Below are positions 17,499 through 35,636 of a stretch of 64,000 bases of DNA, in pieces. Below the pieces are notes generated by a model. That model was given only the letters and a program-made list of their open reading frames with translations. It did no database searches and had not been told where the DNA came from. Position numbers and translations under genes: made by a program. Position 1 is the first letter of the stretch, and each line of letters begins with the position of its first letter. Source of the stretch: an uncultured Candidatus Saccharibacteria bacterium (GTDB lineage: Bacteria; Patescibacteriota; Minisyncoccia; Phycocordibacterales; UBA9973); contig CAZRDO010000003.1 in assembly GCA_964599225.1 (NCBI GenBank), forward strand, positions 8,066 through 72,065. The letters run 5' to 3'.

Positions 17499-17528
17499 TT
17501 GTCCCAATCCTGTAGACTCTTACTATCA

Positions 17529-19214
17529 ATGAAAGAAATACTAAGAAAAGCGATAGAAATTGCAGTTGAAGAGCTCGGGTATAAAGCCGAGGTGTTTTCA
17601 GTTGCAGAACCTGCTGATTTGGCAAATGGCGACTATTCTACCAACATTGCACTTCTCTTGGCCAAGACCGCAGGGGAGAAACCTCACAATCTCGCTGAGA
17701 AAATCGTCGCACAATTAGAAAAATCAAAACAACTTGAACGTGTTGAACGCGTTAGTATCGCTGGTCCGGGTTTCGTTAATTTCTATTTGAAGAGTTCATA
17801 TTTTAGCTCCACTATTCAATCAATAGATAAGGATTGGGGAAAGAGTGGAAAGTTTAAAGACAGAAAGATTCTTGTGGAGCACTCAAGTCCTAACTTGTTC
17901 AAGTCTTTCCACATAGGGCACGTGATGAATAACACCATTGGTGAATCCATCAAGCGCTTAGCAGAATTCTCTGGAGCCGAGGTAACAACCATTTCATATC
18001 CATCTGATGTCTCGCTTGGCATTGCTAAAGCGGTTTATGTCATGCTCGAAGACGGACTCGAGAAAGTTAATTCATTCTCTACAATTACCGAGAAATTAAA
18101 TTATCTGGGTGAGTGTTATGTGCGAGGCACGAAGGCATTTGAAGAAGACAAATCACTTGAACCACGTATCCGTGAAATTACACAAATCCTCTATGACAAG
18201 AAAACCGATACCAAAGAATATGAAGCATATCAATTAGGACGAGATATTAATCTCCAGTATTTCAAGGAAATTACGAGAAGGCTTGGCTCAGAATTTAACG
18301 ATTTCATATTTGAGAGCGAAGCTGGCGTTGAAGGAGCAAAACTTGTACGTGTACATGTGGGTGATGTGTTTACCGAGAGCGATGGCGCAATTATTTTCAA
18401 AGGCGAGGATGTCGGACTTCATACCAGAGTTTTTATTACCAAAGAAGGCAATCCAATCTATGAAGCCAAAGACATAGGACTGCTTTCGCTTAAATTTTCA
18501 CGGTTTACACCTGATCTCTCAATCTTTATTACAGACCATGAACAAGGGGAGTATTTCAAGGTTGTCATGGCAGCAGCAGGAATGATTAATCCAGTATGGA
18601 AGGAGCACTCAATACACCGCACACATGGCAGGATGAGTTTTAAAGGTATGAAAATGTCATCACGCTTGGGTGGAGTACCTCTTGCACATGATGTACTGGA
18701 TTCAATTATTGAAGAAGTTACTAAACGTTCAAGAGATCTCACTGGAGAAGCAAATGACATTATCGCGATTTCAGCACTTAAATTCTCCATTCTTCGTTCA
18801 ATGGCCGGCAAAGATATTAACTTTGACCCTGATACGTCACTCTCGTTTGAAGGCGACTCAGGACCCTATCTTCTCTATAGTGCGGTACGTGCGCAATCGA
18901 TTCTCACAAAGGCAAACTTTACGGATAAAAATGGAATAAAGATTCCAGAAGACTGGCAGAGCACCATGCTTGAACGACAACTTATTCATTTCCCAGAAAT
19001 TGTGTCGCGCGGAATCGAGGAATGGGCACCACATCATATGGTCATCTACCTCCTTGCACTCGCACAAGAATTTAATAGTTGGTATGCAAATACACAAATC
19101 TTTGATGAGAATGATGTTTCTTCACCTTACAAACTTGCGATCACCAAAGCATTTTATACTACGATGAAAAATGGCCTCTATCTTTTGGGAATTGAAGTAC
19201 CGGAGAAAATGTAA
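17529..19214 (+). CDS. argS: Arginine--tRNA ligase
   Basis: Class I HIGH motif (SFHIGHVMNNTIG), a KMSxR-type region (MKMSSRLG) and a C-terminal DALR anticodon-binding region. Start taken at the ATG at 17529 after the upstream terminator; the track start at 17499 is a TTG. Confidence 0.9.
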   Translation: MKEILRKAIEIAVEELGYKAEVFSVAEPADLANGDYSTNIALLLAKTAGEKPHNLAEKIVAQLEKSKQLERVERVSIAGPGFVNFYLKSSYFSSTIQSIDKDWGKSGKFKDRKILVEHSSPNLFKSFHIGHVMNNTIGESIKRLAEFSGAEVTTISYPSDVSLGIAKAVYVMLEDGLEKVNSFSTITEKLNYLGECYVRGTKAFEEDKSLEPRIREITQILYDKKTDTKEYEAYQLGRDINLQYFKEITRRLGSEFNDFIFESEAGVEGAKLVRVHVGDVFTESDGAIIFKGEDVGLHTRVFITKEGNPIYEAKDIGLLSLKFSRFTPDLSIFITDHEQGEYFKVVMAAAGMINPVWKEHSIHRTHGRMSFKGMKMSSRLGGVPLAHDVLDSIIEEVTKRSRDLTGEANDIIAISALKFSILRSMAGKDINFDPDTSLSFEGDSGPYLLYSAVRAQSILTKANFTDKNGIKIPEDWQSTMLERQLIHFPEIVSRGIEEWAPHHMVIYLLALAQEFNSWYANTQIFDENDVSSPYKLAITKAFYTTMKNGLYLLGIEVPEKM

Positions 19215-20124: not shown

Positions 20125-20371
20125 AGCACTGACGAGGCCCCGCCCCAGAAATCCGCTCAGACAGATTCGGGCAGGCATCACCTCTGAGCTCGCCGTAGGC
20201 GAGTAGGCTTCAGGAAGAATGCCCTAAAACATTTGATGACAAATGTTCGGGTACATAGAACCTGACGGGTAAACCCGTAATAGTTGTAACAAGAAGTAAG
20301 TAAGGTGGTACCACGAGGAAACTCGTCCTTATCCAATCAAGATTATTGGTTGTATGAGGACGAGTTTTTAT
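20125..20371 (+). promoter_or_regulatory. T-box riboswitch leader upstream of ileS
   Basis: A ~230-nt leader contains the T-box consensus AAGGTGGTACCACGAGG at ~20302-20318. A terminator/sequestrator hairpin (CTCGTCCT ... AGGACGAG then TTTTTAT) follows, and a candidate ATC specifier lies in an upstream GC-rich stem. It sits upstream of an aminoacyl-tRNA synthetase gene. Confidence 0.6.
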
Positions 20372-23300
20372 ATGGAAGAAAAAACAGAAAACAAAAAATC
20401 AGAATCAGTGCTTCGCGAAGAAGCGGTTTTAAAGTTTTGGCAGGAAAATGAAATTTTCAAAAAATCCCTCAAAAAAGACTCCCCAAAAGGTAACTATGTA
20501 TTCTACGATGGACCTCCTTTTGCGACAGGATTGCCACATTATGGACACATTCTTGGTTCAACGGCAAAAGATGTTGTGGGACGATACCAAACTATGCAAG
20601 GCTATCGGGTGCCAAGGCGTTGGGGATGGGATTGTCATGGACTTCCAATTGAAAATATTGTTGAGAAAGATTTAAAAGTTTCTGGACACAAAGAAATTGA
20701 AGCGCTTGGAGTAAAGCAGTTTGTTGAGCACGCACGAAGCAAGGTACTTACCTATGTGCACGATTGGAAGAGGACAGTGGACCGTATAGGTCGCTGGGTT
20801 GATTTCGAAGGTGGCTATAAAACAATGGATAATACATTCATTGAAAGTGTGTGGTGGGCGCTTGCTGAACTTCAAAAAAAGAATCTTCTCTACGAAGGCG
20901 TGCGAGTGTTGGCATACTGTCCGCGTTGTGAAACTCCGATTGCCAATTCAGAAATCGCCATGGATAATAGTTACAAAGACATTACTGATATTTCAGTGTA
21001 TGTGAAATTTGAACTTGTCGATGAGTCAGGAACATATTTACTTGCTTGGACAACAACACCTTGGACACTGCCGGGGAATACAGCGATTGCAATTAACAAG
21101 GATACGATTTATATCAAAGCCAAAGTTGGCGAAGATACTGTAATTCTCGCAAAAGAGTTAGTTGAAAAAGTGCTTGGTGAGAAGGAATTTACAATGGTAG
21201 AAGAATTTTCTGGTGCGACACTTATTGGTAAAAAATACAAACCAGTTTTTTCATATTTTGAAAACAAAGAAATACAGAATAAAGAAAATATTTGGAAAGT
21301 CTGGCATGCGGATTTTGTAACAACTGAAAAAGGAACAGGTATTGCTCATATGGCGCCAGCATTTGGAGAAGAAGACATGATGCTTGCGAAGAAAGAGAAT
21401 ATTCCTTGGATTATTCATGTTGACCCAACTGGTAAATTTACCGACGAAGTAACTGATTTTGCTGGGCAGTTAGTGAAGCCAAAATCTGATCAAAAAGATG
21501 GTCACCAAGCTACTGATATTGAAATAATAAAATATCTAGCACATCGAGGTTCATTATTTGCAAAAGAAAAAATAATCCACTCATATCCGCACTGCTACCG
21601 CTGTGAAACACCACTTTATTATTACGCTCTCCCATCATGGTTTGTGAATATTCAGAGTGCAAAAGCTCAGATTCTTGAAAAAGCCAAGGAAATGAATTGG
21701 GTACCTGAGTATTTGAAAGACGGACGATTCCACAATATTCTCGAAGGAGCACCTGATTGGACTATTTCACGCAATCGGTATTGGGCAAGCCCTTTGCCAT
21801 TTTGGAAGTCTAAGAATGGGGATCTAATGGTCGTTAGCTCACTAGAAGAATTGAAAAAGAAGACAAAGAAATCTGGAAATAAGTATTTCGTCATGCGCCA
21901 TGGCGGTACCGAGGGTAATGCCAAGGGTGTTATTAGTTTCAAATATCAAGAAAGTGATAATTTAACAGAAGAAGGTAAAACGCAAGTTGAAAGGACTGTG
22001 GAGGCACTACAGCATGAAAAGATCGATCTTATTATTTCTTCACCGTTTACGCGCACCAGAGAAACAACAGAGATTTTGCGTGAAAAGCTTGATCTCTCAG
22101 ACGATCAGATCATCTTCGCTGACGAATTGCATGAAATCGATGGCGGGGATTTTGATGGGAAAACCTGGGAAGAATATCATCAATATATTTTGCAAATGGG
22201 TGAAGATTGGTTTGTAGAGAAGATTCCTGGTGGTGAATCACTCAAAGATGTGGGCAAGCGAACAGGCAAAGTATTGTATGAATTAGAAAATAATTATAAA
22301 GACAAAAATATTTTGATTGTGACGCACGGGGGTCCCGCCTGGGCACTCTTTGTGAATGCTGGATTATTTAGTCCAGTAAATAAAGAATACCAGCCGGCAA
22401 ATTCTCATGTGTTTGTGCCAGAATTTAAACGCTTTCATAATGCCGAGGTGCGAACATTGCCGTTTGTACCACTTCCTCACAACGATAATTACGAACTTGA
22501 TATTCATCGTCCCTACATCGATGAGATTACACTTGTTGATGAAGGTGGAGAGGAATATCATCGAATACCTGAAGTGATTGATTGTTGGTTTGAATCAGGC
22601 TCAATGCCATTCGCTCAAGATCACTATCCTTTTGAACGACCAAACTGGCCAGAAGAAAATTTCCCAGCGGACTTTGTTGCAGAATATATTGCCCAGACTA
22701 GGACGTGGTTTTACTATACGCATGTGCTCTCAACAATCCTGTTTGATCATGCGCCATTTAAACATGTCGTTACAACTGGAACACTGCTTGCCGAAGATGG
22801 AGAGAAAATGTCTAAATCAAAAGGTAATTATCCTGATCCTTGGATTTTGTTTGATAAATATGGTGTTGACGCACTACGACTTTTTCTTATGGGGAGTCCA
22901 CTGATGAGAGGAGAAGACATGAATTTCTCAGAAAAAGCAGTTGATGACATTTATAAAAAGATTGTATCTCGACTCAATAATGTTTTAGTTTTTTACGAAC
23001 TTTATCGAGAAATAGGAATCGAAAACGAAAAAGCGAAAATCGAAAGCGAAAATGTGCTTGATCAATGGATTATAGCGAGACTCAATCAGACCATGACTGA
23101 AGTGACAATACATATGAATATGTATCAATTAACTGAAGCAGTACGACCTTTTGATCTATTTGTTGATGATCTATCAACATGGTACCTCCGTCGTTCTCGT
23201 GATCGAATCAAAGATGGTGATACTGAAGCCAAAGCCACACTCTATTATGTAATAAAAACCCTCGCACAAATTATGGCACCGTTTGCCCCATTTACGGCCG

Positions 23301-23857
23301 AAGATATCTGGAGACGATTGAGAAGTGGTGAAGATGAAGAAAGTGTACACCTAACAAAGTGGCCAGAAATAAGTCAAAAGTCGAAGGTCGAAATCGAAAA
23401 GTTGTTAGAAGAAATGCAGGTTGTGAGAGATCTTTGTACTGTTGGAAATGCACTTCGCAAGAAATCTAATATACCACTTCGCCAGCCACTTGCGTTTTTC
23501 TTTGTGACTGAAGATTTAACGGATGAATTCAAAGAAATTATCAAAGATGAGCTCAATGTCAAAGCAGTCGAGAAGGGGACTGTGATTATATTCGATGAGC
23601 GAATTACGCCAGAACTCAAAGCAGAAGGAGATTATCGTGAATTTGTTCGCGGAGTTCAGGAGTTACGCAAAAAGGCTGGACTCACGCCAAGTGACCGAGT
23701 TACGGTAACACTTTCAGCTAATGCAGAGCCACTGGTGAGACAATTTATGGAAGACTTCAAGAAAACAGTGTTGGCTGATAAAGTTGTCTTTACAGAGAAT
23801 GATGGAGAAAAAGTGAAGACAGGTGAAGATGAGTTTAGTGTTACACTCGAAAAATAA
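20354..23857 (+). CDS. ileS: Isoleucine--tRNA ligase (type 2) with inserted histidine-phosphatase domain
   Basis: HIGH (PHYGHILGS), CP1 editing-domain landmarks (WTISRNRYWASPLPFW) and KMSKS (KMSKSKGN). Residues ~510-700 (FVMRHGGTEGN ... ILIVTHGGPAW) are a PGAM-like His phosphatase. An alternative start is the ATG at 20372, after the leader hairpin. Confidence 0.9.
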   Translation: MRTSFYMEEKTENKKSESVLREEAVLKFWQENEIFKKSLKKDSPKGNYVFYDGPPFATGLPHYGHILGSTAKDVVGRYQTMQGYRVPRRWGWDCHGLPIENIVEKDLKVSGHKEIEALGVKQFVEHARSKVLTYVHDWKRTVDRIGRWVDFEGGYKTMDNTFIESVWWALAELQKKNLLYEGVRVLAYCPRCETPIANSEIAMDNSYKDITDISVYVKFELVDESGTYLLAWTTTPWTLPGNTAIAINKDTIYIKAKVGEDTVILAKELVEKVLGEKEFTMVEEFSGATLIGKKYKPVFSYFENKEIQNKENIWKVWHADFVTTEKGTGIAHMAPAFGEEDMMLAKKENIPWIIHVDPTGKFTDEVTDFAGQLVKPKSDQKDGHQATDIEIIKYLAHRGSLFAKEKIIHSYPHCYRCETPLYYYALPSWFVNIQSAKAQILEKAKEMNWVPEYLKDGRFHNILEGAPDWTISRNRYWASPLPFWKSKNGDLMVVSSLEELKKKTKKSGNKYFVMRHGGTEGNAKGVISFKYQESDNLTEEGKTQVERTVEALQHEKIDLIISSPFTRTRETTEILREKLDLSDDQIIFADELHEIDGGDFDGKTWEEYHQYILQMGEDWFVEKIPGGESLKDVGKRTGKVLYELENNYKDKNILIVTHGGPAWALFVNAGLFSPVNKEYQPANSHVFVPEFKRFHNAEVRTLPFVPLPHNDNYELDIHRPYIDEITLVDEGGEEYHRIPEVIDCWFESGSMPFAQDHYPFERPNWPEENFPADFVAEYIAQTRTWFYYTHVLSTILFDHAPFKHVVTTGTLLAEDGEKMSKSKGNYPDPWILFDKYGVDALRLFLMGSPLMRGEDMNFSEKAVDDIYKKIVSRLNNVLVFYELYREIGIENEKAKIESENVLDQWIIARLNQTMTEVTIHMNMYQLTEAVRPFDLFVDDLSTWYLRRSRDRIKDGDTEAKATLYYVIKTLAQIMAPFAPFTAEDIWRRLRSGEDEESVHLTKWPEISQKSKVEIEKLLEEMQVVRDLCTVGNALRKKSNIPLRQPLAFFFVTEDLTDEFKEIIKDELNVKAVEKGTVIIFDERITPELKAEGDYREFVRGVQELRKKAGLTPSDRVTVTLSANAEPLVRQFMEDFKKTVLADKVVFTENDGEKVKTGEDEFSVTLEK

Positions 23858-24187: not shown

Positions 24188-24796
24188 ATGAAAGCAATCC
24201 TTTTTGATTTTGATGGAGTGCTCGTGAACACATTACCAATGTGTTTTGAGATAAATCGAGAAAAGAATCCTAATTTCACCTTCGAACAGTATCAAGATAT
24301 GTCAAACGGTAATTTCTATGTTTCGTACGTTGAACATAGCGCTAAGGGTCTTTATGTTGCTCATGACGACTACCACAAACAATATGCAAAACATCTCATA
24401 CAATACCAAGTTCCAGAAGAATTAAAGAGGCTCATTATAGAATTGAAAGATAAGTTTCTCTTGGCCATTATTACTTCTGGGGACACCTCGGCAATTAGTA
24501 CACTACTAGAAAAAGAAAATATACGTTCATATTTTTCTGAACTACTTGGATACGATTTTCATACTGATAAAACTCATAAGATTTTGCATGTACTCAAGCA
24601 GTATTCAATTGAACCACATAATACTGTGTTTATTACCGATACGCTCGGGGATATTCTTGAAGCAGAGAAAGCGGGAGTCTCAGCAATCGCAGTGACCTGG
24701 GGTCTTCATGATAGAGATAGACTTAAGAAAGGTAAGCCTATCACTATTGTTGATACAGTTGGAGAATTAGAAACTAAAATTAAAGAAGTATTGTGA
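24188..24796 (+). CDS. HAD superfamily hydrolase (subfamily IA)
   Basis: Motif I (ILFDFDGVLVNT), motif II/III context, and a C-terminal DTxxD-like TDTLGDI. Confidence 0.8.
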   Translation: MKAILFDFDGVLVNTLPMCFEINREKNPNFTFEQYQDMSNGNFYVSYVEHSAKGLYVAHDDYHKQYAKHLIQYQVPEELKRLIIELKDKFLLAIITSGDTSAISTLLEKENIRSYFSELLGYDFHTDKTHKILHVLKQYSIEPHNTVFITDTLGDILEAEKAGVSAIAVTWGLHDRDRLKKGKPITIVDTVGELETKIKEVL

Positions 24797-25608
24797 TGAA
24801 ATCACTCAAATTCCAACCGCATCTCCGAGATCCGATTTTAGATGGTAGCAAAACTATAACCTGGCGATTTTTTGACGATAAAGATATACAAGTTGGTGAC
24901 GAATTAGAATTCTTTGTCAGTGGCGATGATCGATCATTTGGTCACGTAAGTGTGATAAAAATTGAGAGTAAAAAAGTTGGTGAGCTTACCCAAGATGAAA
25001 TGAGTGCTCATGGCTACCATTCAATCGAAGAAGTTATTGAGGCACACAACACTTACTATGGCGGCAAGATAACAGAGGAGACTCCACTAAAAATAATTTA
25101 CTTCTCCCGAGTCAAAGATCCATATCAAGTAGTGAATCCGTATAAGTATTCTCCAGAAGAAATTGCTAAGCTTCCTATAGCCAAAAAAGTCCGTGCAGCA
25201 GTTTTCTTAGACGAAAATACACTTATCTGTACTGAAGAAGAAAATATGGAACAGATGGTGCTTGGAATGCCAGGTGGAGGTATTGAGGAAGGGGAGGATA
25301 ATGAGAGTGCACTTCGACGTGAGGTGAGGGAAGAGGTGGGTTATGAAATTAAGAATATTTCATTCCTTGGCACAATAGAGGCTGTAAGAGAGTCTTATAG
25401 ATCTGTCACACTCTGTTACCAGTGTGAAGTAGAGGGTGTAGCTGGAGAGCTTAAGCCCACCGAAAAAGAGATTAGAGCCAAAACCCATCCAGTAATTGTG
25501 AAAACCAAGGAAGCTCATATGAGATGTAAAAATGAGTATGAAAAATATGGAACATTTCACTCAATTCGATCTGTGTTTATACTTGAACATTTAAAAAAGA
25601 ATACTTGA
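24793..25608 (+). CDS. ASCH domain / NUDIX hydrolase fusion protein
   Basis: N-terminal ASCH/PUA-like segment (ILDGSKTITWRF...GDELEF). C-terminal Nudix box (GGGIEEGEDNESALRREVREEVGY). Overlaps the HAD gene by 4 nt. Confidence 0.75.
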   Translation: MMKSLKFQPHLRDPILDGSKTITWRFFDDKDIQVGDELEFFVSGDDRSFGHVSVIKIESKKVGELTQDEMSAHGYHSIEEVIEAHNTYYGGKITEETPLKIIYFSRVKDPYQVVNPYKYSPEEIAKLPIAKKVRAAVFLDENTLICTEEENMEQMVLGMPGGGIEEGEDNESALRREVREEVGYEIKNISFLGTIEAVRESYRSVTLCYQCEVEGVAGELKPTEKEIRAKTHPVIVKTKEAHMRCKNEYEKYGTFHSIRSVFILEHLKKNT

Positions 25609-33115: not shown

Positions 33116-34198
33116 ATGGCAGTTAACGCAAATAAAGAATACCAAGTTCATATAAGTGGTAAAACTATTTCCACGTTCTTCATAGTGATTATCGCTCTCG
33201 CGACACTCTGGGTGCTTCGCAATCTCGCGCTTGTACTTCTGACGGCAATTGTCATTGCTTCATTTAGTGAATATGTAGTTCTTAAACTGCGACGTTATCG
33301 TTTTCCGAGAGTCCTTTCAGTGATTATCGTCTATGTTGCGACATTGCTTGTATTCTCAGGCCTCTTCTATGTTTTAGTACCGATATTTGTGGGTGAAGCA
33401 TCAGACCTCATTGATGCGGCCCAGAAATTTATTCCCGTAGGACAAGAATCCACTGCGATTAATCCAAGTTCAATTGATACTGCAACATCACTGGTTTCAG
33501 GCATTACACACGGCGCACCACTGAGCCAAATTCTCCAGCAATCACAATCATTTCTCTCGAGTTTTTCTGCAGGATTCTTTGGTATTGCGACAGGTATTTT
33601 TGGAGGTATATTTAATTTCATACTTGTCATTATTTTGTCGTTCTACCTCTCGCTTCAGGAGAAGGGTATTGAGCAGTTTATTCGAGTGGTGGCACCAGTG
33701 CGAGCACAAGATTACGCAGTTGATCTTTGGCTTCGTACTGAGCGGAAGATTGGGCTTTGGATTAAAGGTCAATGCTTCTTGGGACTTCTCATAGGCGTGA
33801 TTACCTACATTGTGCTTTCGATTATTGGTGTTAAGTACGCACTTCTTCTGTCCATTCTCTCAGCCATTGCTGAGCTGGTTCCGTTCGGTATCGTTGTGGC
33901 AACCGTGCCAGCAGTACTCTTTGCCTATCTTGGCGGGGGAGTGAAGCTTGCAGTGATTGTCGGAGTCTTCTACTTTATTCTCCAACAGATTGAAAACTAT
34001 TTTATTGTCCCTCTGGTGGTCAAACGAGTCGTCGGTATTCCACCACTTGTCGTGATCCTTTCAGTCCTCATTGGGGTGAAACTCGCAGGATTCTGGGGAC
34101 TTGTGCTAGGTATCCCCGTTACTGTACTTCTGATGGAGTACATTGATGACCTTCGCAAAAAAAGAATAGTTGAGGATGTTTCGAAAGCGCATGAATAA
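33116..34198 (+). CDS. AI-2E family transporter (UPF0118/PerM-like)
   Basis: Eight predicted TM helices. The C-terminal ILSAIAELVPFGIVVATVPAVL pattern is typical of the family. Confidence 0.6.
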   Translation: MAVNANKEYQVHISGKTISTFFIVIIALATLWVLRNLALVLLTAIVIASFSEYVVLKLRRYRFPRVLSVIIVYVATLLVFSGLFYVLVPIFVGEASDLIDAAQKFIPVGQESTAINPSSIDTATSLVSGITHGAPLSQILQQSQSFLSSFSAGFFGIATGIFGGIFNFILVIILSFYLSLQEKGIEQFIRVVAPVRAQDYAVDLWLRTERKIGLWIKGQCFLGLLIGVITYIVLSIIGVKYALLLSILSAIAELVPFGIVVATVPAVLFAYLGGGVKLAVIVGVFYFILQQIENYFIVPLVVKRVVGIPPLVVILSVLIGVKLAGFWGLVLGIPVTVLLMEYIDDLRKKRIVEDVSKAHE

Positions 34199-35636
34199 TG
34201 AGTCTAAAAAACCTTTCTATATTACGACGACTCTTCCGTATGTGAATGCTGAGCTCCATATGGGGCACGCACTTGAATTTATACGGGCCGACGCCATTGC
34301 CCGGTACAAAGAGCTCATGGGCTTCGATGTGTTCTTTAATTCAGGGACTGATGAGCACGGTAGCAAAATTTATAAAAAAGCAGAGGAGGAAGGCAAAGAG
34401 GTAAAACAATTTGTTGACGAGAATGTAAAGAAATTTTATGAATCAGTAAAAATCTTTGGGTTAAAAGACGGGGTGCATTTTATTCGTACGACCGATGATG
34501 CTCATATAAAAGCGGCGGAAGCTTTTTGGAAGACTGTTGACTCGAATGGATATATCTATAAGAAAAATTATCAGACGAAATATTGTATTGGTTGTGAGAG
34601 CGAGAAAACTGAATCCGAACTTGTCGACGGCAAATGTCCTGAGCATGGCACCATACCCGAACTTATCGACGAAGAGAATTATTTCTTCAAGTATAGTCAC
34701 TTCACCAAACCACTTCTCGACTTCTATGAGAAAAATCCTCAATTCGTTGTTCCAGAATTCCGCTTCAATGAAATGAAGGCCTTTGTTGAGCGAGGACTCG
34801 AAGATATCTCTATCTCACGCAGAAAAGAGAAAATGCCTTGGGGCATCCCAGTGCCAGGCGACGATGCTCATGTGATGTATGTCTGGTTTGATGCGCTCAC
34901 AAGCTATATAGCGACCCTGGGCTGGCCAGATGAGGAGGGAGAGTTTAAGAAGTATTGGGTAGGGGGTACGCCAACTCAATACTGCGGCAAGGACAATACG
35001 CGTTTCCAGAGCGTACTCTGGCAAGCAATGCTCATGGCAGCCGGACTTCCTAATTCACACCAGATTATCGTCAATGGCTTTATTGTCGCCGACGGAGGCG
35101 TAAAAATGTCCAAAACTATTGGTAATGTGGTGAACCCGAGAGATATTGCCCGAGACTACAGTACCGAAGCACTACGGTTTTTTCTTCTCGCTGAAGTTGC
35201 GAATTTCGAGGATAGTCCATTTACTGCGTCTCGGTTTCGGGATGCGTATAATTCGAAGCTCGCCAATGGTTTGGGCAATCTCACGAGTCGTATTATGAAA
35301 ATGGCAGTTACGAATTTGACCGAGTGGCCAGAGATACCTCTGACTTCAATTCCTGATGAATGGAAAGAGCGAATGGAAGCATTTGATATCAAAGGCGCGA
35401 TGGATATTATCTTTCGCCATGTCGGCGAACTCGATTTGATTATTCAGAGCAAGGAACCATTTAAAATGGTGAAAATTGAGAAAGAGAAGGCACTCGCGAT
35501 CATGAGTGATTTGGTAGTGAGACTTTATACGATTGCTCGGATGTTAAGTCCATTCATGCCGGAGACGTCTAAACAAATGAAAGAAATAATTAAATCACGG
35601 AACATGCCGGGCCCACTTTTTTTGAGGAAAGAATAG
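34191..35636 (+). CDS. metG: Methionine--tRNA ligase (short form)
   Basis: HMGH variant of HIGH (NAELHMGHALEF), a zinc-knuckle CIGC...CPEHG, and KMSKT (VKMSKTIGN). ATG at 34191 overlaps the upstream stop by 8 nt. Confidence 0.9.
   Translation: MNNESKKPFYITTTLPYVNAELHMGHALEFIRADAIARYKELMGFDVFFNSGTDEHGSKIYKKAEEEGKEVKQFVDENVKKFYESVKIFGLKDGVHFIRTTDDAHIKAAEAFWKTVDSNGYIYKKNYQTKYCIGCESEKTESELVDGKCPEHGTIPELIDEENYFFKYSHFTKPLLDFYEKNPQFVVPEFRFNEMKAFVERGLEDISISRRKEKMPWGIPVPGDDAHVMYVWFDALTSYIATLGWPDEEGEFKKYWVGGTPTQYCGKDNTRFQSVLWQAMLMAAGLPNSHQIIVNGFIVADGGVKMSKTIGNVVNPRDIARDYSTEALRFFLLAEVANFEDSPFTASRFRDAYNSKLANGLGNLTSRIMKMAVTNLTEWPEIPLTSIPDEWKERMEAFDIKGAMDIIFRHVGELDLIIQSKEPFKMVKIEKEKALAIMSDLVVRLYTIARMLSPFMPETSKQMKEIIKSRNMPGPLFLRKE

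Follow-up and report, generated by a model that had tools for sequence, protein, structure and literature searches.

The DNA analyzed here, a 64-kb window of contig CAZRDO010000003.1 from an uncultured Candidatus Saccharibacteria bacterium, contains a single ileS gene (20354..23857, forward strand, as are argS and the parts of ileS described below), and nested within its reading frame is a second enzyme, a branch-1 histidine phosphatase. The gene encodes a type-2 isoleucyl-tRNA synthetase (IleRS) of 1167 amino acids (aa) plus stop that scores 856.9 bits against the IleRS equivalog model TIGR00392 (cut-off 621.4), with the match divided into two stretches around the insert. The start codon is ambiguous, as the longest open reading frame begins at 20354 (MRTSFYMEEK...) and the family alignment begins at the ATG at 20372. 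A database protein of 1161 aa (P0001), which is 100% identical to the window IleRS, starts at M7, the ATG at 20372, and this ATG is likely the true start.

The N-terminal part of the synthetase (aa 1–503; 20354..21862) consists of the first half of the Rossmann/HUP fold, the CP1/editing domain and the start of a hairpin. It carries the class I motif HYGH (20537–20548), the editing-domain motif TTTPWT (21050–21067) and WTISRNRYW (21758–21784), after which comes the first half of what was once a zinc-knuckle hairpin, with the helix SSLEELKKK at its end. The C-terminal part (aa 713–1167; 22490..23854) contains YELDIHRPYID, DCWFESGS (22580–22603), a derived motif, EYIAQTRTWF (aa 777–786; 22682–22711), KMSKS (22805–22819), the Anticodon_1 domain and the C-terminal DUF5915 of type-2 enzymes. 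Pfam likewise finds tRNA-synt_1 in two stretches flanking His_Phos_1, together with Anticodon_1 and DUF5915. Without exception, 120/120 relatives have HYGH, KMSKS, WxISRNR and DCWFESGS, along with TTTPWT and GTGxAHxAP of the editing domain, and the best matches in the PDB are to Priestia megaterium IleRS2 (PmIleRS2) and the yeast, Candida and T. thermophilus IleRS, before any type-1 enzyme. A predicted model of the full-length protein (predicted local distance difference test, pLDDT, 85.2; predicted template modeling score, pTM, 0.75) superposes on PmIleRS2 (8c8v) with a template modeling score (TMt) of 0.79, on 1ile with 0.84 and on the yeast IleRS-tRNA structure 8wnd with 0.76–0.82. Judged by motifs and model, the synthetase body is intact despite the insert.

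The phosphatase domain (aa 510–704; 21881..22465) extends from strand β1, KYFVMRHG, to the last strand, NAEVRTLPF. An earlier note, made by reading the sequence, had claimed that a histidine phosphatase with intact catalytic residues lies inside the IleRS, and both claims hold. PF00300 (His_Phos_1) matches aa 512–667 with E 5.5e-34 (118 bits, far over the Pfam cut-off of 21.7) and the translated segment 21881–22480 on its own with E 1.6e-35, the two runs giving 118–123 bits. The motifs that the note quoted lie where it placed them: R515-H516-G517 (RHG) at 21896..21904 and the second catalytic histidine, H658 of THGGPAW, at 22325..22327. Between them are R567, the second phosphate-binding arginine, in SSPFTRTRET (22052..22054) and E594 (22133..22135), by homology the putative general acid/base. 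In 120 aligned sequences of the close family, R515, H516, R567, E594 and H658 are 100% conserved, G517 99% and N522 91%; more widely, position 594 is E in 90% of embedded copies and D in 95–100% of separate copies. Over the same 120 sequences the mean frequency of the top residue is 0.55 in the insert versus 0.78 and 0.72 in the IleRS flanks. The rest of the insert evolves faster than the IleRS body although the catalytic residues are invariant, and purifying selection acts on these residues. Modeled in isolation with AF2, the domain reaches pLDDT 95.6 and pTM 0.92, and Foldseek assigns it the alpha/beta phosphoglycerate-mutase-like fold with probability 1.0 to many solved members (TM 0.6–0.72). 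Its nearest solved folds belong to small-molecule phosphomonoesterases: the phosphoserine phosphatase PspA (4ij5), mycobacterial hydrolases and GpgP, TIGAR, PhoE, CobC and a phosphatase of the riboflavin pathway. The domain is complete, and we are highly confident that it is real, conserved and designed for catalysis.

The insert lies at the tip of the zinc-knuckle hairpin in the second half of the catalytic domain, between WxISRxRxW and DxWFxSG, following the helix 'SLEELKK' and preceding 'LDLHRPYID'. Residue 503 aligns with residue 477 of 8c8v and residue 713 with residue 484, such that ~209 residues take the place of a ~6-residue loop. The flanks are therefore contiguous IleRS sequence, and the position in a catalytic-domain loop bears out the earlier note's description of an internal, in-frame domain insertion rather than an end-to-end fusion. 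Its sizes need correction. The complete phosphatase domain measures ~195–207 aa (aa 506/510–704/712) and not ~180 residues, and the protein, which is indeed longer than ordinary type-2 IleRS, exceeds PmIleRS2 by 135 aa and the insert-less IleRS of Paceibacteria by ~200, instead of by ~120–130 aa. In printed examples, the hairpin segment is 61–64 aa long in insert-less enzymes versus 262–274 aa in insert-bearing ones. The hairpin is framed by CxxC...CxxC, the zinc knuckle, in PmIleRS2, in insert-less relatives and in 79 insert-bearing relatives; both cysteine pairs are gone in 152 embedded sequences, including that of the window, where 'KSKNGD' and 'VDEGGEE' (within 21785–21862 and 22490–22579) stand at the places of the cysteines.

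Two short linkers join the enzymes. In the N-terminal linker, TKKSGN (aa 504–509; 21863..21880; pLDDT ~92–94 in the full-length model), every member of the embedded family has S507 and N509; in the C-terminal linker, VPLPHNDN (aa 705–712; 22466..22489; pLDDT 87–93), P708, H709 and N710 are 90–99% conserved in embedded forms only, and the preceding F704 is 94% conserved. In the full-length model the insert has pLDDT 89–97 and both linkers 87–94. Since the linkers are conserved, specific to embedded forms and confidently modeled, the model suggests that the phosphatase is docked in a fixed position rather than held on a floppy tether.

Could the insert be an intein? An intein would give a Hint match, begin with Cys, Ser or Thr at the first insert position and end in His-Asn followed by Cys, Ser or Thr. 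No Hint/intein family is among the Pfam matches of the window IleRS, and the junctions (...KKK/TKKSGN... and ...PLPHN/DNYE..., that is, K-S-G-N and P-H-N-D), in which His-Asn is followed by Asp, do not have intein splice residues. On these two grounds an intein, which the earlier note had also denied, is ruled out. Base composition does not change abruptly at the insert; therefore, the insertion is old.

A fixed attachment would also suit a module that does not turn over a metabolite, such as a sensor of a phospho-ligand or a protein (phospho-His/Ser/Thr/Tyr) phosphatase controlling IleRS or a partner. The histidine phosphatase superfamily includes the protein phosphatases SixA, Sts and PGAM5, and the N-terminal half of the insert weakly matches the SixA model (E 1e-8, 35 bits versus a cut-off of 74.5); moreover, in the model the phosphatase seems rigidly attached to the catalytic domain. 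However, the best matches are small-molecule enzymes, and the whole catalytic set, from the nucleophile and the arginine pair to the acid and the second histidine, is invariant in every copy, which is more than ligand binding needs. Since this catalytic set is invariant, catalysis is favored over ligand binding, and we regard a non-hydrolytic or regulatory module as very unlikely.

The nested phosphatase is not peculiar to this genome. All of the best 120 homologues (59–66% identity, 1120–1219 aa), from NCBI, JGI, ENA and Logan assemblies, have both PF00300 and IleRS domains. A survey of related genomes, which the earlier note had recommended, reveals the same insertion in at least 159 GTDB species-representative genomes, among them a closed chromosome of 0.99 Mb (CP060229.1). 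Submitters labeled these genomes Zambryski-, Nomura-, Taylor- and Adlerbacteria, Paceibacteria/Paceibacterota, Parcubacteria and Minisyncoccia; the labels 'Saccharibacteria', from one submitter's series, and 'Spirochaetia', which occurs once, are probably generic or wrong. The feature is thus clade-wide. Because at least 159 species genomes, including the closed chromosome, and independent assemblies from four sources share the architecture, an assembly chimera, which the earlier note had named as an outcome that would overturn its view, is excluded. Taken together with an intein and with the remnant of a mobile element read through in frame, the idea of an artefact or selfish element has next to no chance of being right: the window protein matches no Hint/intein or transposase family, has no compositional break and shows the pattern of purifying selection described above. 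In one distant relative, P0250, the editing region of the IleRS, and thus another place than the hairpin, does hold an IS200-like Y1 transposase segment (aa 340–461), and a GNAT domain is present at the C-terminus (aa 935–1063). It is the sole item that comes near to such a reading, and it may be a damaged gene.

NCBI names many of these proteins merely 'class I tRNA ligase family protein' despite TIGR00392 scores well over the cut-off. The insertion thus appears to defeat automatic naming, leaving an essential gene, ileS, under-annotated in hundreds of genomes.

The same phosphatase also exists as a separate protein. An exhaustive search with the insert as query yields 11,308 relatives at E ≤ 1e-3 and 946 at E ≤ 1e-10, and the best 150 include full-length proteins of ~190–200 aa, which their sources call histidine phosphatases of Parcubacteria, Paceibacterota or Pacebacteria. 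One of these stand-alone phosphatases is labeled 'isoleucyl-tRNA synthetase' by JGI. In 3/3 contigs that we looked up, an ileS without insert is directly preceded, on the same strand, by the stand-alone gene, whose product is 34–42% identical to the insert. The order is argS - phosphatase - ileS - recO, and phosphatase and ileS have a 4-nt gap or a 4-nt overlap. The insert-less IleRS of these related Paceibacteria are 949–966 aa long where the gene is called whole. In the window, argS (17499..19214) is a syntenic neighbor, giving the same argS ... ileS neighborhood as in the sister lineages.

To put numbers on this link, we scanned metagenomes with the stand-alone family and obtained 80 loci, 69 of them informative and 11 where the contig ends. 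An ileS start lies <300 nt downstream of the phosphatase at 39 loci and further downstream at 3, making 42 adjacent; at 10 loci the phosphatase is embedded at the same hairpin site, and at 17 no ileS is found in the flank. Thus, 52 of the 69 informative loci (75%) have the phosphatase physically tied to ileS. Among 47 adjacent pairs, 14 have a stop-to-start spacing of -4 nt, 4 overlap to a different extent and 24 are spaced by 0–30 nt, so that 42 of the 47 overlap or are no more than 30 nt apart, and the abutting genes are probably co-translated. The embedded loci from GTDB have one copy each, with no separate copy within 6 kb. Phosphatase and IleRS therefore stand in a Rosetta-stone relationship, as abutting genes or as a nested domain, and their partnership is conserved across Paceibacteria-type Patescibacteria in two interchangeable forms.

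Embedded, adjacent and unlinked phosphatases have a common signature that goes beyond the catalytic core, consisting of N509, Y511, L537, T538, G541, D558, S563, T571, G598, G602, E628, R636 and K651. The unlinked proteins (L098, L101, L105, L118, L129, L164 and others) are 199 aa long, begin MKLxLKNKYFLLRHGKTIHQ... and are often encoded beside a gene whose product starts MKYDVAVIGGGPAGMIAAGRAG, an N-terminus of FAD/NAD-binding type.

Some IleRS contain more than one phosphatase. These variants are known from cluster representatives, one to three per variant type. Two copies are present in P0165, P0178, P0198 and P0228, and four tandem copies in P0130, each copy in the 2- to 4-copy variants retaining R-H...R...E...H. 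In P0165, P0198 and P0228 a second site is occupied, after KMSKS and before the anticodon-binding domain, while in P0178 a phosphatase occupies a third site, between DxWFESG and EGxDQ. At this third site P0216 has a P-loop kinase-like domain (AAA_18/AAA_33, aa 746–869) with weak, mixed matches to APS kinase, shikimate kinase, Pnkp1 and guanylate kinase (E 0.02 or worse). We considered this domain as a clue to the substrate and dropped it, as the matches are too weak and mixed.

How often has the phosphatase moved? A neighbor-joining tree of the domain places three small embedded clusters among the adjacent-gene forms, requiring 4 parsimony changes, whereas in a tree of the IleRS body, embedded and insert-less enzymes split almost cleanly. 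We therefore rejected many independent captures, as the IleRS-body tree conflicts with the ~4 embedded-to-separate changes of the domain tree. Because the C-terminal part of embedded IleRS of the L130 type is 63–67% identical to an insert-less IleRS versus 49–50% to the other embedded enzymes, a switch between embedded and separate forms must have occurred between close relatives.

These distributions bear on one alternative, namely that the phosphatase belongs to everyday metabolism or house-cleaning, merely became an operon mate of ileS in streamlined genomes and was caught in a tolerant surface loop, keeping an unrelated function of its own and leaving aminoacylation unaffected. Its fold and sequence are of the generic PhoE/PspA/CobC-like kind, patescibacterial genomes are compact, one stand-alone subgroup is found away from ileS (17/69 loci) and the insertion point is the tip of a surface hairpin that tolerates loss of its zinc ligands. 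An accidental passenger would, however, have to account for an insertion in an internal loop of an essential enzyme being kept across at least 159 species, for phosphatase domains recurring at three sites of this same enzyme in 2–4 copies, for the linkage to ileS of 75% of the stand-alone-type genes, with stop and start codons overlapping, and for linkers that are conserved and confidently modeled. We consider this alternative unlikely.

Another possibility is a phosphatase directed at tRNA, which would strip the acceptor end of tRNA(Ile) of a 3′- or 2′-phosphate or another phosphate mark before charging, so that tRNA damaged or modified by toxins would have its end healed or be proofread on the synthetase itself. 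All insertion sites are in or beside the catalytic core, where the CCA end is received, and the tie to one synthetase points to a role specific to a tRNA or an amino acid. Moreover, the kinase-like domain beside the phosphatase of P0216 recalls the end-healing enzymes that combine kinase and phosphatase (Pnkp1, E 0.056). However, this domain, from one cluster representative, matches APS and shikimate kinases equally weakly; the closest folds of the phosphatase are all small-molecule enzymes with a normal cap region; and we know of no branch-1 histidine phosphatase that acts on RNA ends. Nor does the basic charge of the stand-alone proteins, which is lineage-wide, constitute evidence of RNA binding. 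The median isoelectric point (pI) of stand-alone phosphatases adjoining ileS is 9.9, versus 5.8 for embedded and unlinked copies, and the insert-less IleRS of the same loci are also basic (pI 8.7 versus 5.9). Because these IleRS share the shift, it is a lineage-wide effect of composition, and we rejected charge as evidence of docking on tRNA or IleRS. Phosphatase and IleRS are both basic in the separate-gene lineages (L081–L166) and acidic in the embedded-domain lineages (L001–L080). In our judgment a tRNA-directed phosphatase is somewhat less likely still.

The reading that we prefer, and to which we give slightly more than an even chance, is that the domain nested in this type-2 IleRS would be an active phosphomonoesterase working in obligate partnership with the synthetase. 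In branch-1 histidine phosphatases, a phospho-enzyme forms when the RHG histidine attacks the phosphate; two arginines and the second histidine bind the phosphate, and the leaving group is protonated by an acidic residue. If the insert works as its homologues in the superfamily do, H516 would be the nucleophile, and a phosphomonoester would be hydrolyzed through a phospho-His516 intermediate, with R515, R567, H658 and N522 holding the phosphate and E594 serving as general acid/base. The phosphatase may then act jointly with IleRS, its target being something that the synthetase produces, consumes or is blocked by. As its fold neighbors (PspA, PhoE, CobC, GpgP) and ordinary cap region favor a small molecule, our guess is that the substrate could be a small phosphorylated metabolite or nucleotide, such as AMP or a related nucleotide from the synthetic site. 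That the phosphatase is functionally coupled to IleRS we hold with moderate confidence. We put forward more tentatively, and would not be surprised to see it fail, the further proposal that in Paceibacteria-type Patescibacteria IleRS and a dedicated histidine phosphatase form an undescribed two-enzyme unit, that phosphatase activity is mechanistically part of isoleucyl-tRNA synthesis, either ridding the synthetic site of an inhibitor or nucleotide product or mending a phosphorylated tRNA(Ile) end, and that selection has repeatedly joined the two activities, as an abutting gene, as a domain nested in the hairpin and as extra copies at two further sites.

Several observations weigh against an obligate partnership or blur its purpose. 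The subfamily models all score far under their cut-offs and none is reached: 94.3 versus 162.9 bits for CobC (TIGR03162), 70.6 versus 350 for PspA (NF045917) and, for cofactor-dependent phosphoglycerate mutase, 64.9 versus 225 (NF038349), 37.7 versus 316 (NF002339) and 19.4 versus 320 (NF002217). The nearest solved structures work on unrelated small molecules, and PspA, although structurally the closest solved protein, is only 28% identical. Our confidence in any substrate assignment is low, and nothing accounts for IleRS alone among synthetases requiring a phosphatase. About a quarter of the informative loci (17/69), representing one closely related subgroup in variable contexts, have the phosphatase apart from ileS. 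Finally, the window copy has A589 and E591 (22118–22126; D589A, R591E), a singleton among the 120 close relatives, in which these positions are D and R in 88–100%. The D/R pair is present in 159/179 domains, and since the two positions co-vary, they probably form a structural pair.

Comparison with characterized enzymes shows what sets the arrangement apart. In fold, catalytic RHG-Arg-Glu/Asp-His, size and cap, the domain resembles the branch-1 phosphatases PhoE, PspA, CobC and GpgP (4ij5, 1h2e, 3hjg, 4qih, 9mmh). Those are free proteins, whereas the window phosphatase is nested in another enzyme (or, in relatives, encoded by an abutting gene), and the window and stand-alone family differs from the PhoE/PspA type by the signature N-x-Y before strand β1 and HG[GD]P[LA]W after the second histidine. 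PmIleRS2, a type-2, eukaryote-like, mupirocin-resistant bacterial enzyme (8c8v; PMC10485003), is homologous to the synthetase over its full length (709 bits), with the same domain order including DUF5915 and conserved HIGH, KMSKS and editing motifs; unlike PmIleRS2, the window enzyme has ~209 extra residues at the hairpin tip and lacks the zinc-knuckle cysteines. His_Phos_1 is also covalently joined to a second enzyme in the RNase H/acid phosphatase (NF005567; the window protein scores 83 bits versus a cut-off of 326 against this bifunctional model) and in 6-phosphofructo-2-kinase/fructose-2,6-bisphosphatase (1bif, 5hr5), both of which the insert matches in searches, but these are end-to-end fusions, whereas here the phosphatase is nested and its partner is a translation enzyme. 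A curated precedent for an IleRS with an additional enzymatic domain is ileS_w_GNAT (NF040702), in which that domain is a GNAT rather than a phosphatase; with 321.8 bits versus a cut-off of 1999, the window IleRS is not a member. Therefore, IleRS with an extra enzymatic domain were already recognized, and the nested phosphatase appears to be a new form of them.

Aminoacyl-tRNA synthetases are among the best-studied enzymes, and the domains added to them usually bind RNA, edit errors or mediate signaling. Our searches of the full-text literature found no description of an IleRS, or of any other aminoacyl-tRNA synthetase, with an embedded histidine phosphatase, in agreement with the earlier note, whose author knew of none. 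The nested phosphatase is mentioned neither in the paper on the PmIleRS2 structure (PMC10485003) nor in a 2026 preprint that segments 1047 IleRS2/IleRS-A sequences into domains (10.64898/2026.02.03.703510). The architecture thus appears to be undescribed, yet it is visible in precomputed Pfam annotations. A conserved, catalytic phosphatase nested in this enzyme would imply an unrecognized chemical or regulatory need of isoleucylation, or would at least be a striking case of an enzyme within an enzyme. Should phosphatase activity indeed be part of isoleucyl-tRNA synthesis, this IleRS would be the first known case of a synthetase that requires it. The conservation spans a whole class of ultra-small bacteria, and in their relatives the abutting stand-alone gene mirrors the nested form.

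A second peculiarity of this synthetase is EYIAQTRTWF, which replaces the class-Ia motif EGxDQxRGWF (AEGIDQTRGWF in PmIleRS2), normally invariant. The Asp of EGxDQ presumably contacts the adenylate ribose in T. thermophilus IleRS. Among the close relatives, Y778 is present in 120/120, A780 in 112/120 and T784 in 119/120, and the enzymes with the derived motif form a monophyletic subclade within the insert-bearing IleRS. We considered whether the derived motif is coupled to the insert and rejected this, because many insert-bearing IleRS, the more distant ones, keep EGxDQTRGWF. The window protein misses the mupirocin-resistance models MupA and MupB (NF000257 and NF000258), with 677 and 725 bits, respectively, versus a cut-off of 1900.

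As for the surroundings, no Rfam family, tRNA included, exceeds its gathering score anywhere in the 64-kb window. Downstream of ileS are a HAD-family hydrolase gene (24188–24796) and, overlapping its stop codon, a gene for an ASCH-NUDIX fusion (24793–25608). These encode two more putative phosphohydrolases, one of them with a domain of RNA-binding type. Lastly, a span of 18 kb holds three genes for class-I synthetases: argS (17499–19214), ileS (20354–23857) and a metG-like gene (34170–35633).

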